Origin: Rhina ancylostomus
Taxonomy: Eukaryota
DNA length: 64,000 nucleotides
Direction: 5' to 3'
Assembly (NCBI GenBank): GCA_030265395.1
Contig: JARFYF010000002.1
Span: forward strand, 31,316,599-31,380,598
The position numbers were made by a program, and so were the translations under genes. Under the pieces are notes generated by a model. It was given only the letters and a program-made list of their open reading frames with translations, was not told the DNA's origin and searched no databases. This document shows, piece by piece, positions 4,685 to 63,389 of the stretch (the stretch's first letter is position 1; each line of letters opens with the position of its first letter).

Positions 4685-5295
4685 GAAGACAGAAAATGCT
4701 GGAAATATTCAGTAGATCAGACAGTATATGTGGAGAGAGAAATAGAGCTAATGCTTTGGGTCAAAGACCTGTCATTAGAACTGGAAAAAAAGAGTGATAC
4801 AATTGGTTTTAACTAAGTATAACGTTAGGGAAAGAGGTCAGAGATGAAGCACAAAAGGGAAGGCTGATTAAATGCCAACAATGGCATGATGGTGCAATGG
4901 GACAAATAATCAAAGACTGGCATGGAGGAACTGTAAATGACCAAAGGACAGAATTACTAAATGGGGCATTGGTTATGATTTGGAATTGCTGANNNNNNNN
5001 NNNNNNNNNNNNNNNNNNNNNNNNNNNNNNNNNNNNNNNNNNNNNNNNNNNNNNNNNNNNNNNNNNNNNNNNNNNNNNNNNNNNNNNNNNNNCTGAATTC
5101 AGTGTTGGTTCCGGAAGGCCATACCATGCCTAATTGAAAGATGAGATGGTGTTGCTTGAGCTACCAATGAGCTTCATTGGAACAATGTTGGAGGCTGAGG
5201 ACAGAGGGGCCAAACTGGAAATGCGATTAAGAAATAAGGTGACAAATGACTGGAAGCTCAGGGTCATGCTTGGGCATTGGAGGTGCTCTGAAAAA
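4685..5295 (-). mobile_element. Penelope-like element 3' part (GIY-YIG C-terminus plus terminal region)
   Basis: Minus strand 5093-5290 reads FSEHL../KHDPELPVICHL..SVLSLQHCSNEAHW*LKQHHLIFQLGMVWPSGTNTEF, resembling the PLE GIY-YIG tail (LPVAxHFN...KLEEQHLIFRLGTLQPxGLNIEF). The terminal segment has a decayed hammerhead at 4746-4783. Confidence 0.8.
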
Positions 5296-23456: not shown

Positions 23457-25568
23457 CTACCTTCTCAAAAACTTTCAATATCTTCTACTACAACATTTTT
23501 CATAAGTATTGAAGGACTGTGACACTTCTTTTTATGGGTGGGATGGGGTAAGTGCAGGGAAGAGGGGTTGCAGGCATTGTGAATTTAGCATTGAACTTGG
23601 CAATGACTCATCTTGTCAGTAGAGTTCCTTATCAGTGAAGAACGGTTTAGAACTGTGACCTGTGCATTATCTTTACTGCAAAGCTCATATCTCAACAGAG
23701 GACATTTAAAATGGCTTTTAAAATAATATTATGTTATTTTAAATTGTTTGTTGAATAAATTTGTCTTTCTTGTTTTCATTTACCATGCCACTAGGAGGTG
23801 ATATTTACCTATGTATAGAGTTTTACATATTAAGAAACAGAGAGGATACTGTTGGAATAAAATAAAGAGTAAAGAAGAACATTGAAGACAATTTCTCCTT
23901 TTGGTAAATTATTTCATAGTTGCACCATCAAACTAAATCTGGGTTAAATGGGTCGGTAGGTGATTTGTTCTAATGCTTTTTTCTAAGCAGCTAATGGGAA
24001 GTCAATGAGATCATGACTTGCTTTGTGATTGTTTTTTTTATTCCCTGGAGGAAGCATCATGCTTTCTCTGATGTCCTAGCTAACACTATGAAAATAAAAA
24101 AGGTGCTTGAATAGGAAGCAATTACTCTAAACATTGCAATTGTAAACTACAAGGGTGCTTTGGATGAAATTCAAAACCGTCCTACATCAAATAAAATTTT
24201 GCCATTTAAGATATGTATTTCCCCAGCACAGTTGACCTACAGTTACCCTGACACCATTGGCATTCAGTGTTCCTGACACTGACAACTTTTCTATACACAG
24301 TTCTTAGAGGAATCCAAAGACCTGTCTTTATTTTATTTGTATTTTTAAAGCAGAATTCACACTGTCCACAGTTATTTTATGAAAGGAGTTTCACCTGACC
24401 ATACATTAAGCAAGTGTGTGAAAATATGTCAGTGGTCACCCCTTGCAGGATCATTTATTCCATTAGTACAAACTGGATTCAACTCTGGGTACCAAAGCTC
24501 AAGAGGTATAAAAATGTAAAAGCCAAATAGGCAAGTCTGATAAAGATGTGAAGTTCATCTGATCCTGTAATTTCAATGTTCAGCATTTAATACATTGCAC
24601 ATTATTTATGGTTATTTCTCAACATTATGAAGTATTTTTGAAGTTTAGTGCTTCGAGGATGACATTTAATGTTAGATGTTGTAATGCCAGAGTTTATTTT
24701 GACTCTTCGTGATGCCTATTTCACTCAGTAAGTGCTGAATATCTCAAGTATTAGCACATATTTATTTGAAATACTGTTTAACACTTTTTTTGTCACTGTA
24801 TATATGCTAGAGCAATTAGTATGAAAAATCTTTAGATAAGACCAAAAATTTATAATATGGCAAAGAAATGTTTCTGATGAAATATTTTGAGATTTAGCAG
24901 CAAAGTTACTGTATTAAAGATTTCTTGACTGAAATTCTGTAGCAATCTTGAAGCAAGAGACACTTGTGACAAGAGGAACAAAATTTTTATTCTTAGGTCA
25001 TAAAAAATATATCAAATTAATAAAGATAGTGATCTATAGAATTGAATTCATTTTGGAATTAATTTTTATTTCCACATTTATCTCTTGTGCATCAGGCACC
25101 ATTTCCCAACTAGACGGTACAGGTCAGGAACACAGCTTTAAAGCTGTTCCCCTGCACTGCCCAATCAGGTTGCAGAGCATCTCAAGGTGCTCTGGGCTGA
25201 TGCTTTTACCATCCTATGGGGACAGTCTGCTCTTCACTTTGTTCTAGTTATTATTGAAATTATTGAATTGCCCAATATCAAGAATCTGTGTGTGGTAAAT
25301 CATAGCAGAAAANNNNNNNNNNNNNNNNNNNNNNNNNNNNNNNNNNNNNNNNNCCTTTTCTCTATCGTATGGATAGAGGAGACCATGCTCGGGGATCTGT
25401 AATGATGACAATGGTGACAATTCCAATTGCAATTATTACAGACGGGGTCACCCTATTGTCTGCCACAGGGAAGGTCATTGCACTTCATCCTCCTTATTGC
25501 AGTGGTCGAAGACTTTGTCTCAGAGTTACAGTGTGAATCCTGGTTGTCAAAGATATCCCCAATGTTCC

Positions 25569-25699
25569 AGATGTAATGTTTCATTCTTCCTGATGTAATG
25601 CTGATCCTCTGATGTAATGTTGATCGCTGATATTCCTGACGTAATGCTGATCCCCAAACCCCTGATGTAATGCTGATTCCTAGTCTTCCCGATGTAATG
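25569..25699. repeat. Six-copy irregular array of (T)GATGTAATG
   Basis: Cores start at 25569, 25591, 25610, 25637 (TGACGTAATG), 25663 and 25690, with non-identical spacers. Confidence 0.9.
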
Positions 25700-26019: not shown

Positions 26020-26306
26020 ATGGAGACACAAGAGACTGCAGATGCTGAAATCTGGAGCAAAAAGCAAGCTGATGGAGGAATTCAACGGGTCAGGCAGCAT
26101 CTGTGGAGGGAAACAGATAGTCAATGTTTTGGGCCGAGACCCTGCATCTGGATTGAAAAAGTAGAGGGGAGATGGGCAGTATAAAAAGAGGAGAGGGAAG
26201 GGAATCACTGCTAAGTGACAGATGGATCCAGGTGAGGAGGGGTTGATTGACAGATGGGGGAGGGAAGGATGGAGGTAACGACAGAGGCTGGGAGGTGATA
26301 GGTGGA
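26020..26306 (-). mobile_element. Penelope-derived terminal fragment with decayed hammerhead (26118-26155)
   Basis: Same family as 39238-39480; minus strand caatcCAGATGCagggtctcggcccAAAAcattgacta. Confidence 0.75.
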
Positions 26307-31579: not shown

Positions 31580-31675
31580 AAACAAGATGCTGGAGAAACT
31601 CAGCAGGTGGGCGGCATCTGTGGAGGGGAATAGACAGCTGAATTTTTGGATTGAGACTCTTCAAATGGACTTCAC
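31580..31675 (-). mobile_element. Penelope-derived terminal fragment, strongly decayed hammerhead
   Basis: aagatgctggagaaactcagcaggtgggcggcatctgtggagg family signature. Confidence 0.65.
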
Positions 31676-35609: not shown

Positions 35610-35750
35610 TCTGAAGAATCCTGAAGAAGGGTCATGACCCAAAACGTTGACTGCCTGCTTTTCTCCATGGATGCTACCTGGCCTGCTGAGTTCTTTCAGC
35701 ATTATAGTTTTTCACCTAGATTCCAGCATCTGCAGTCATTTATTTCTCTA
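35610..35750 (+). mobile_element. Penelope-derived terminal fragment with near-intact hammerhead (35616-35653)
   Basis: gaatcCTGAAGAagggtcatgacccAAAAcgttgactg; perfect stem II, with GAAA changed to AAAA. Confidence 0.75.
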
Positions 35751-37959: not shown

Positions 37960-38140
37960 CAAAAGCAGAAAATGCTAGAAAAACACTGCAAGTCAGGCAC
38001 TATCTGTGGAAAGGGAAGCATTCACTGTTTTGGGTCTGTGACCCTTAGTCAAAACTGAGGAAGAGACAAATACAAGTTAGTCTTCAGTGGGAGAGATGGT
38101 GAGGAAGGGATTGTAGAACAAAGGGAACATGAGACCAAAT
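37960..38140 (-). mobile_element. Penelope-derived terminal fragment, decayed hammerhead (38019-38057)
   Basis: aaaagcagaaaatgctag..gtcaggcactatctgtggaaag signature; stem II gggtc-aca-gaccc. Confidence 0.65.
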
Positions 38141-39237: not shown

Positions 39238-39480
39238 ATGGAGACACGAGAGATTCTGCAGATCTGGAACCTGGAGCAACACACACAAAATGCTGGAGGA
39301 GCATAAACAAATGGAGGGAAGTAAACAGTCGACGTTTCTGGTTGAGACCCTTCATCAGGACTGGAAATGAAGAGGGCAGAAGCCAGAATAAAAAGGGAGG
39401 GGAGGAGCCCCAGCTGGCAGGTGATAGGTGAGTCCAGGTGAGATGGTGGAAGGTAGGTGAAAGGGAATGATGTGGGTATG
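39238..39480 (-). mobile_element. Penelope-derived non-autonomous terminal fragment
   Basis: Family signature plus hammerhead core. Confidence 0.8.
39326..39363 (-). ncRNA. Minimal type-I hammerhead ribozyme motif
   Basis: CAGUC-CUGAUGA-agggucucaacca-GAAA-C-GUC-GACUG: stem I 5 bp perfect, catalytic core intact, GUC cleavage triplet, stem II partly damaged. Confidence 0.7.
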
Positions 39481-61155: not shown

Positions 61156-61249
61156 ACATGGGAAAATTCCCACTCTCCAACTATTCTTGGCCTCATCGCT
61201 TCCACCTTGCATTTTCCACTTTTCCTTTAGTAGACACTTTTCTTATTGA

Positions 61250-61650
61250 AAAACACTATGATGCTGGAGGAACTCAGCCGGCCAGGCAGCATCCGTAGGG
61301 AACAGCAGGCAGTCAACGTTTCGGGACAGAACCCTTCTTCAGGACTGAAGATAGGAAAAGGGGAAGCCTAATATATAGGAGGGAAAAGCAGAGCAGTGAC
61401 AGGTGGACAGAAGAGGGGAGGCGGGGTGAGCACAAGGTGGTGATAGGTAGATGCAGGTAAGAGATAGTGATAGGCAGGTGCGGGGGAGGAGGGAGAGCAG
61501 GTCCACCAGGGGATGCGTCAAAGGTAAGGGTAAGGAGAGTAAAAAAGGAGGCCAGAAGAAAGAAAGATAGGCTAGGAAAGAGAATAAAAGATGAGGCATG
61601 GATGGGTGGTGGTGGGGAAGTGGTGTGGGGATTGCTTAAAGTGGGAGAAT
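61250..61650 (-). mobile_element. Penelope-derived terminal fragment (young, CpG-retaining)
   Basis: gatgctggaggaactcagccggccaggcagcatccgtaggg signature, hammerhead, and a pyrimidine-rich upstream tract on the minus strand. Confidence 0.8.
61310..61347 (-). ncRNA. Minimal type-I hammerhead ribozyme motif (intact)
   Basis: CAGUC-CUGAAGA-a-GGG-uucugu-CCC-GAAA-C-GUU-GACUG: stem I 5 bp, core CUGANGA/GAAA, stem II closed, NUH = GUU, loop-less palindromic stem III (AACGUU). Confidence 0.75.
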
Positions 61651-61750
61651 NNNNNNNNNNNNNNNNNNNNNNNNNNNNNNNNNNNNNNNNNNNNNNNNNN
61701 NNNNNNNNNNNNNNNNNNNNNNNNNNNNNNNNNNNNNNNNNNNNNNNNNN

Positions 61751-61918
61751 CGGGTGCTCCGGTTTCCTCCCACATTCCAAAGACGTACGGGTTAGCAAGT
61801 TGTGGGCATGCTATGTTGGCGCCGGAATCGTGGCGACACTTGCAGGCTGCCCCCAGAACATTCTATGCAAAAGATGCGTGTTTTGATGTACATGTGACTA
61901 ATAAAATATCTTATCTTA
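61751..61918 (+). mobile_element. V-SINE 3' part
   Basis: Highly similar to 54180-54352. Confidence 0.85.
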
Positions 61919-63389
61919 AAAGGAAGCAAACACATTTCATTTAAGCATGTGAAAACATCAGTGCAACATAATTTCAACCCTTTAAAGTTTACTATTGTTA
62001 ATGCATCATGTGGTTTAAGTGTAATTTAAAGAAGTATCTCTTTTTCATGATTTGAATGGTAAACAAAACTTTCATTGATCACCACCATAGAAGTTAGCCT
62101 CTAAATTATATGGCTGTTGTGGTGTGCAGTTGCAATTACAAGCAGTATAATAGAGTGAATTATAATGTTGTGGAGATTACTCCAATCACTTGTAAGTAAA
62201 ACTGACATGGATTTCTAATGCATATTGCATAGACAAATATATCAATAAAATGAATTCTAGGCTAAAATGTTCTACTTGTAAAAAATGACTTTGAGTTTAT
62301 GCAATGAGTTAGGATCATTCACATTAATTACAATTTCAATGTTTAATCTTTTAAAAATTGATATTAAATTGCCTTAAATATTGTGATTGAATACTGACCT
62401 AGTCATTGACAATTTGCTAGTCACTAATCTGGATAATGTGGAATTGCTTATTATTCTCTTGGTAGAATGAGGCAATAGAAGGAAGCCAGGAATGATGGGT
62501 AAACATTTTTGATCCAGTTAGTTAGTTAATTGGGTTTGCACCTCATAAGTGTGCATAAACAGTGATGGTAGGGAAAGTTCTGTGCACAATTCTATTGAAG
62601 CTCAGCTTAGCTACACACTGAAAACACTGGTGTTCACGACTGTGTGCACTTGGCATGCTAACATATTTGCCGCCTTAAGCAGACTGACAATCTCCACAGC
62701 TGAGTAATGTCCACCGGAATGATGAAACACTTTTCCAGGAGCAGGATGATGGCAAAACAGAAGATGGAAGCTGGAACTTCACTTAAAATTCCTTTGCTTT
62801 TCATTCATTTCCCCAGCTCAGACAATGCCTGATGGGCAAGTTTGCCCCATGCGCAGAGAGAGAGCTAGAGCTGACTTTGGTGGGAGTCTCTGGAGCTCTG
62901 AAACTCAGAGGTTCTAGGCTAAACACCTCTCAGCAGTCAGAGCAGGGACTTGTATGACCTGCATCATACTGGTGCTGAAACCACATGGGAGACACTGAGA
63001 AAAAGTGGTAGGATATGCCATTCAAAGAAATATTAGTTCTTGCTTGTATTTCTTAATTCTAAAGTATAGACGTGGCTATTTAAATTATTTAAAAAAGGAA
63101 ATATATTGATACACCAGTGTTTACTAACACACATGTGCACACTCTAAGTGAATCCCCATACATAACAGGACTGAATAAGGATTCAGACAATGGCTAGATG
63201 ATTGGACAAAGCATTGCTTCTTACAAAGTGATGAGTGTGGGGTAGAATTTGTGCCTATGATGGGAACAGACTGCAGATTTCATTTGGTATATTTCACATT
63301 AGATGATTAGTTCTCTTGCTCCACAAGCAACCTGATCAAGTGTGCAGGTGAGATGCCACAATGGCCATCACAACAATGTGAATTTCAGT

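Follow-up and report, generated by a model that had tools for sequence, protein, structure and literature searches.

The motif on the minus strand at 61347-61310 of the window, by which we mean the whole 64,000-nucleotide stretch of Rhina ancylostomus DNA that was analysed, is genuine and not a product of chance. It is an ordinary, decaying copy of a known class, one among over a thousand look-alikes. Very probably we are dealing with a minimal hammerhead that sits in the terminal repeat of one copy of a Penelope-like element (PLE), came in as a passenger, decays as its flanks do and is likely inactive where it lies. On its own this copy is of little consequence, being one of more than 1,000 core-intact fossils; the family view could matter.

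Sequence and layout of the motif

The minus strand reads CAGUC CUGAAGA A GGG UUCUGU CCC GAAA CG UU GACUG (38 nt; Table 1), exactly as a preliminary description of this DNA had given it. A descriptor of minimal hammerheads matched once in the window and in none of 300 Markov-shuffled windows, and a looser motif pattern matched twice against 0.01 expected. The layout shares its defining features with the minimal hammerheads of metazoan PLEs: a CUGANGA...GAAA core with a UH site in type I order, a base left unpaired between A9 and 10.1 together with a G10.1-C11.1 pair, and a palindromic 15.2-16.2 without an intramolecular helix III. Since the motif also follows the end of a GIY-YIG retrotransposon ORF at a distance of about 285 nt, and thus lies in a PLE terminal repeat, its assignment to a minimal type I hammerhead in a PLE end is upheld, as is the proposal that helix III could form only between two motifs. 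Of the self-complementary AACGUU put forward in the same description, the palindrome proper, which takes the place of helix III, is ACGU, at 61319-61316 (positions 15.1-16.1 in the numbering of PMC4209133).

Table 1. Coordinates of the motif, of its host element and of the neighbouring genes (window positions unless a contig or locus is named).
Feature	Position	Strand	Basis or remark
Stem I, 5' strand CAGUC	61343..61347	-	sequence, folding
Core C3-U4-G5-A6-A7-G8-A9 (CUGAAGA)	61336..61342	-	sequence
Unpaired extra A between A9 and G10.1	61335	-	marks metazoan PLE minimal hammerheads (PMC4209133)
Stem II GGG/CCC with 6-nt loop	61323..61334	-	pair G10.1-C11.1 is G61334-C61323
G12-A13-A14-A15.1-C15.2-G16.2-U16.1-U17	61315..61322	-	ACGU palindrome replaces helix III
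Predicted cut site	between 61315 and 61314	-	after GUU
Stem I, 3' strand GACUG	61310..61314	-	subfamily majority GACCG
UCUUCA arm, predicted to pair with core 61341-61336	61346..61351	-	folding; shared across the subfamily
Visible 3' part of PLE copy (ORF end, 3' untranslated repeat, hammerhead)	61247..61650	-	83-87% identity to relatives
Last codons FSHFK of RT/GIY-YIG frame	61632..61650	-	frames of relatives end FSHFK-stop
Element end, at the first of the two favoured 3' ends and lacking the 34-nt 'tail'	61247..61309	-	72 ends compared
Sorting-nexin-17-type gene (PF18116)	L049:4075-4215	-	left of window
eIF2B-family gene (PF01008)	contig 31295039-31298478	+	left of window

Taken alone, the 38-mer folds into a 5-bp stem I and a 3-bp stem II at -9.6 kcal/mol, a stability that is not out of the ordinary (z -1.1). 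The Rfam search that had been recommended gave no hammerhead family at E up to 5-10. This silence is expected for a motif without helix III and does not count as evidence against it; the marks of a canonical type I hammerhead of the Rfam kind, namely a covariance-model match, helix III and loop 1-loop 2 contacts, are absent here.

The host element

In the 2.2-Gb genome, 5,320 candidate relatives of the 401 bases at 61250-61650 were found; the best 40 of them, with the self match excluded, share 83-87% identity. The protein end of the PLE has 43,496 candidates genome-wide. An assembly gap of 100 N (61651-61750) conceals the 5' side of the window copy, whose visible coding part is limited to the last five codons and in which the family stop codon TAA is replaced by CAA (61634), a difference from nearly all reads aligned to it. 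It is in the relatives that a single ORF with a reverse transcriptase (RT) followed by a C-terminal GIY-YIG domain is found, as in endonuclease-bearing PLEs. Particularly, relative L074 has an open frame of 363 aa that takes in an RT IDD motif, a cysteine-rich linker and a GIY-YIG-type domain, in this order; its ten best atlas matches are HTH_animal/GIY-YIG retroelement proteins (PF26215/PF01541, scores 0.94-0.97), and Pfam gives a weak GIY-YIG match (E 0.12). The linker, CPxHxCNTCP-like in L074, L075, L077, L081 and L082, precedes the endonuclease as described for Neptune/Nematis (PMC8557442), which makes the element a candidate member of the Neptune clade.

The 3' ends of the family are bimodal. 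After one of 73 copies was dropped for lying beside N, 72 ends were scored, and 32 of these fall at 85-103 nt and another 32 at 118 nt or more past C3, with peaks about 34 nt apart. In addition, inverted second copies occur in 7 of 20 long loci. An optional tail of 30-40 bp and adjacent inverted, 5'-truncated copies are thus both present, and a tail with an inverted copy is among the described marks of endonuclease-bearing PLEs (PMC8557442). None of the 20 long loci holds a same-strand pair of the window copy's subfamily or a full-length element with two repeats; 19 of the 20 contain N gaps, and the window copy is itself cut by a gap.

These ends suggest how the motif may have come to lie where it does. 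Reverse transcription would have begun at one of the two preferred ends, some 65 nt past the cut site on its 3' side, and the cDNA would therefore have run through an uncut hammerhead, fixing the motif in DNA. In an active element, helix III would need a second copy, supplied by a tandem precursor RNA, and cleavage would probably be helped by the element's protein. The lone window copy would have neither partner nor protein, and UCUUCA is predicted to trap its core.

Six further PLE-end copies lie in the window, at 39311-39368 (-), 35617-35704 (+), 26069-26159 (-), 31585-31670 (-), 37972-38066 (-) and 4696-4785 (-); they belong to several subfamilies and the motif is broken in all of them. Right behind the gap, at 61751-61931, a different high-copy repeat starts, which is not a continuation of the PLE copy and which presumably resembles the 3' part of a SINE. 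Short tandem repeats with a period of 22-26 lie next to gaps at 25565-25677.

The window copy and its subfamily

For comparison we used 72 relatives, 29 gathered for their similarity at the DNA level and 43 solely through the endonuclease protein; for the latter, 91 of 150 matches were taken, one duplicate was removed and 47 were dropped for gaps, truncation or a motif that was not spanned. The NUH site GUU, reported earlier and present, is the subfamily state (68 of 72 relatives), which rules out that it arose by CpG decay private to this copy; GUU is among the cleavable NUH triplets listed in PMC3138052. The perfect 5-bp stem I that had been described is there and folds as such, but it is a product of CpG decay: at the CpG site 61311 the relatives carry C in 55 cases, T in 16 and G in one, and the majority stem I has an A-C mismatch. 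Stem II is closed, as claimed, by three GGG/CCC pairs, one fewer than in the subfamily (GGGU/ACCC), since a private A>U change at 61326, where 71 of 72 relatives have A, has removed the fourth pair. The copy carries two private changes within stem II and loop 2. Reads and contigs of related species show the same subfamily states.

Fixed core variants in sister lineages

When 188 motif copies are sorted by what follows stem I, several subfamilies emerge, the window copy's being the least diverged (median 8%). Another has CUGAUGA, GUC and a true 5-bp stem I; once two CpG columns had been restored in its majority sequence, the correct fold was predicted with the flanks included (stem I probability 0.86-0.93). 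Two lineages depart from the consensus in the core itself. U4A (CAGAUGA) accounts for 173 exact copies, against 6 with U4G and 43 with U4C (examples L183-L197), and A9C (CUGAUGC), or a C inserted before A9, for 135, against 6 with A9G and 7 with A9U (examples L198-L212). Each lineage has its own downstream sequence, and the core changes were therefore already in the templates that multiplied. An endonuclease frame is joined within 1.5 kb at 2 of 15 U4A loci and at none of 15 A9C loci. Some natural core variants retain low activity according to section 8 of PMC3088659, which does not name U4A or A9C there, and a literature search found no account of these two variants, the figures of PMC3088659 (S6-S7) and of PMC4209133 lying outside its reach.

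These observations bear on what the motif does for the element. One possibility, in our judgement less likely than not, is that PLE lineages have multiplied with crippled hammerheads fixed in their master copies, namely U4A, A9C and the youngest subfamily, that of the window copy, in which GUU goes together with a mismatched stem I and a hairpin that traps the core. The spread of the U4A and A9C lineages hints that cleavage may be dispensable for spread. If this were so, it would be natural evidence for such dispensability in vivo, and the variant lineages would form a ready panel for testing it; lineages with a non-consensus core would mean either that retrotransposition does not require cutting or that supposedly inactive cores are rescued by the protein of the element. 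In this regard, PMC8557442 describes as unclear what the hammerhead does in endonuclease-bearing PLEs.

A further reading, which we hold to be rather unlikely, is that the motif serves the element as a protein-binding or RT-priming structure, and that its likeness to a hammerhead is vestigial even in the master copy. It draws on the subfamily's putative master state (GUU, the A-C mismatch in stem I and the core-trapping hairpin), on a stem I probability of 0.00 with flanks for relative L029, on the sister lineages that multiplied with U4A or A9C cores and on the finding that hammerhead mutants do not impair insertion in vitro (PMC11167929). Against it stands the retention of GAAACGU, of G10.1-C11.1 and of a paired stem II in every lineage, together with a full core in the majority class of lineages. 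For the window copy itself, a role of this kind is compatible with our preferred explanation of a decaying passenger.

Two side observations concern the same lineages. A set of 43 CCGAUGA copies may be a third lineage with a fixed variant, and at L200:1408-1566 (contig C1, near 120.93 Mb) lies a tandem array of 4.5 copies whose 35-nt unit is the A9C-type motif alone. This array would allow the dimer fold, and it resembles a minimal retrozyme.

Folding, partners and transcription

Whether the window copy cuts depends on its fold and its company. The computed probability of stem I falls from 0.998 for the bare motif to 0.39 with flanks of 12/8 nt, 0.065 with 25 nt and 0.001-0.003 with 50-300 nt, by programs that disregard tertiary contacts, proteins and co-transcriptional order. 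In the native flank context the upstream UCUUCA (61351-61346) is predicted to trap the core, to which it is complementary, with 6/6 pairs kept in 51 of 72 relatives and 5/6 in 17 of 72. We do not claim that the hairpin is selected, because a pyrimidine-rich tract beside a purine-rich core pairs easily by chance, and the pairing may have arisen in this way. Two bare 38-mers could adopt the active dimer at -17.5 kcal/mol, a stability that both two monomers (-19.2) and the best dimer (-21.2) surpass. In addition, with U17 present, AACGUU could pair A14 with U17 and so disfavour the active core.

No intact partner was found in the assembled sequence within 3.9 Mb. Among the matches listed, the two exact-intact motifs closest to the window copy on its contig lie at distances of 3.9 and 4.8 Mb, and the same-strand relative at 39,311-39,368, 22 kb from the motif, has lost the 10.1-11.1 pair. 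A tandem partner could be hidden in the gap at 61651-61750, which conceals the 5' side. As to published activity, single minimal motifs showed no detectable cleavage and dimers cut little (PMC4209133), the hammerhead of an anole PLE, dispensable for insertion in vitro, cuts only with the element's protein (PMC11167929), and of nine retrozyme dimers from Xenopus, one was cleaved strongly in vitro and eight were not cleaved (10.64898/2026.07.22.740005).

A search for RNA runs containing the stretch itself listed none. RNA was searched in three raw runs of a related species from one study, about a fifth to a quarter of each run being covered. The PLE family is present on both strands, and read ends do not pile up at the cut site in any of the three runs, nor does any other position show many molecules starting or stopping, a result that ordinary libraries, which can miss 5'-OH ends, would also give for cut RNA. 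Over window positions 61385-61500, in the 3' untranslated part, plus-strand first mates exceed minus-strand ones about 2-3 fold in the related species; in most stranded libraries this excess would mean more sense than antisense family RNA.

Host genes were sought by Pfam on 145 of 1,467 candidate frames, a splice-site scan and three family searches, which found no exon in the window and genes only at 18 kb or more to its left. The nearest, of the eIF2B family, is on the plus strand and ends 18 kb from the window; the sorting-nexin-17-type gene, on the minus strand, lies beyond it. With no exon found in the window and the nearest genes found 18 kb off, nothing points to a host transcript on the minus strand, though a transcript that is non-coding or has a long intron may run through the motif. 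A GC-rich island left of the window (L046:6400-7300) separates the two genes, which are apparently head to head.

The preliminary description had further suggested that the copy may still self-cleave and cut a minus-strand transcript running through it. We consider it very unlikely that this occurs in vivo, whether by a dimer with a partner hidden in the gap or with the element's protein in trans. The full core, GUU site and 5-bp stem I, the dimer open to isolated 38-mers, the family RNA on both strands and the one strongly cutting Xenopus dimer speak for it. They are met by an active dimer that is outcompeted even for the bare motifs, by the core trap predicted in the native flank, by the distance of the nearest intact motifs and the broken relative at 22 kb, by a window in which no exon was found and by the eight uncut Xenopus dimers. 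Because there is no known partner nearby and misfolding is predicted in the native surroundings, the window copy likely does not cut.

Decay of the copy

The same description had called the hammerhead intact. The copy is not specially preserved: it differs from the subfamily majority by 8.9%, an average value next to the 6.1-10.9% of the 29 other copies, and neutral mutation has reshaped its stems. It does retain CpG sites, keeping three of four CpG columns, but three or four are kept in 16 of 72 relatives, and the lost site is the very one whose loss made stem I perfect. The 13 core bases and the palindrome are intact in the window copy and in 9 of the 72 relatives; with a 5-bp stem I required as well, the count among relatives is two. 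Genome-wide, an intact core with 3-bp stems has 1,212 exact matches, against none in a reversed control. The window copy is the only strict-intact one among 39 relatives within the surrounding 237 kb, and 362 kb of arbitrary stretches gave 0 of 48; the preliminary description had therefore picked out a better-than-average copy.

Core positions might be expected to be better conserved than neighbouring bases across genomic copies if the motif were at work. The 72 copies show 69 core changes, where near flanks matched for base class predict 72.0 (P 0.39) and wide flanks 79.4 (P 0.13), an outcome that goes against the idea of a working copy as it was originally framed. The core CpG bases C11.1 and G12 are changed in 30% of cells, flank CpGs in 26%. 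Non-CpG G/C core bases of the 43 protein-selected copies are changed in 4 of 158 cases against 59 of 782 in the flanks (p 0.022, uncorrected), a stratum that is one of 18 comparisons and whose effect is absent in the other 29 copies. Overall, the copies thus appear to decay like unselected DNA, the core like its flanks. Across subfamilies the stem I pair is C-G in nine, C-A in four, U-G in two and U-A in one, a sample too small to read for covariation, and the U2.1-A1.1 that replaces C-G in the majority of an older group (12 copies) amounts to one event at most.

That host selection has preserved this copy as a domesticated regulatory ribozyme is scarcely credible: it is the sole strict-intact copy of its 237-kb neighbourhood, but about one in eight subfamily copies (9/72) is equally intact by chance of age, its overall divergence is ordinary, its two private changes fall in stem II and loop 2, and it has no helix III, which a stand-alone ribozyme needs.

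Comparison with known systems

The closest counterparts are the minimal hammerheads described in the pLTRs of metazoan PLEs (PMC4209133; Cervera and De la Pena, 2014), of which a fish, coelacanth or frog genome carries thousands. Neither the text consulted nor two searched supplement files of that paper mention cartilaginous fish, and a literature search on hammerheads of shark PLEs gave a single review. Like the published motifs, the window motif is of type I, with a short helix I (4-5 bp), an extra base between 9 and 10.1, the G10.1-C11.1 pair and a palindromic 15.2-16.2 without helix III, and like these it belongs to motifs found mostly as single dispersed copies from truncated elements. 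It differs in its GUU site and, with respect to the Schistosoma motifs of the same study (stem II of 7-8 bp), in a stem II of 3 bp, or 4 bp in its subfamily.

The hammerhead of PAc, a Poseidon element of the anole (PMC11167929; Frangieh et al., 2024), offers a functional parallel. It lies in the pLTR just 5' of two reverse-transcription starts that define a 30-40-bp tail, recalling the two end peaks about 34 nt apart in the window copy's family, and in both systems RNA-seq ends are absent at the cut site. In contrast to PAc, of the Penelope/Poseidon clade, the window copy's element has a cysteine-rich linker of the kind described for Neptune/Nematis, and whereas the PAc ORF starts at the motif, N7 is A in the window subfamily and no AUG is found there.

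Finally, non-LTR retrozymes, which are tandem repeats of type I hammerheads reported in one chondrichthyan genome (10.64898/2026.07.22.740005), share with the window motif an origin from PLE terminal repeats. The window copy differs in that it stands outside any tandem array and is joined to an ORF end, and for these two reasons we reject a retrozyme at this site and regard the copy as part of a truncated element.
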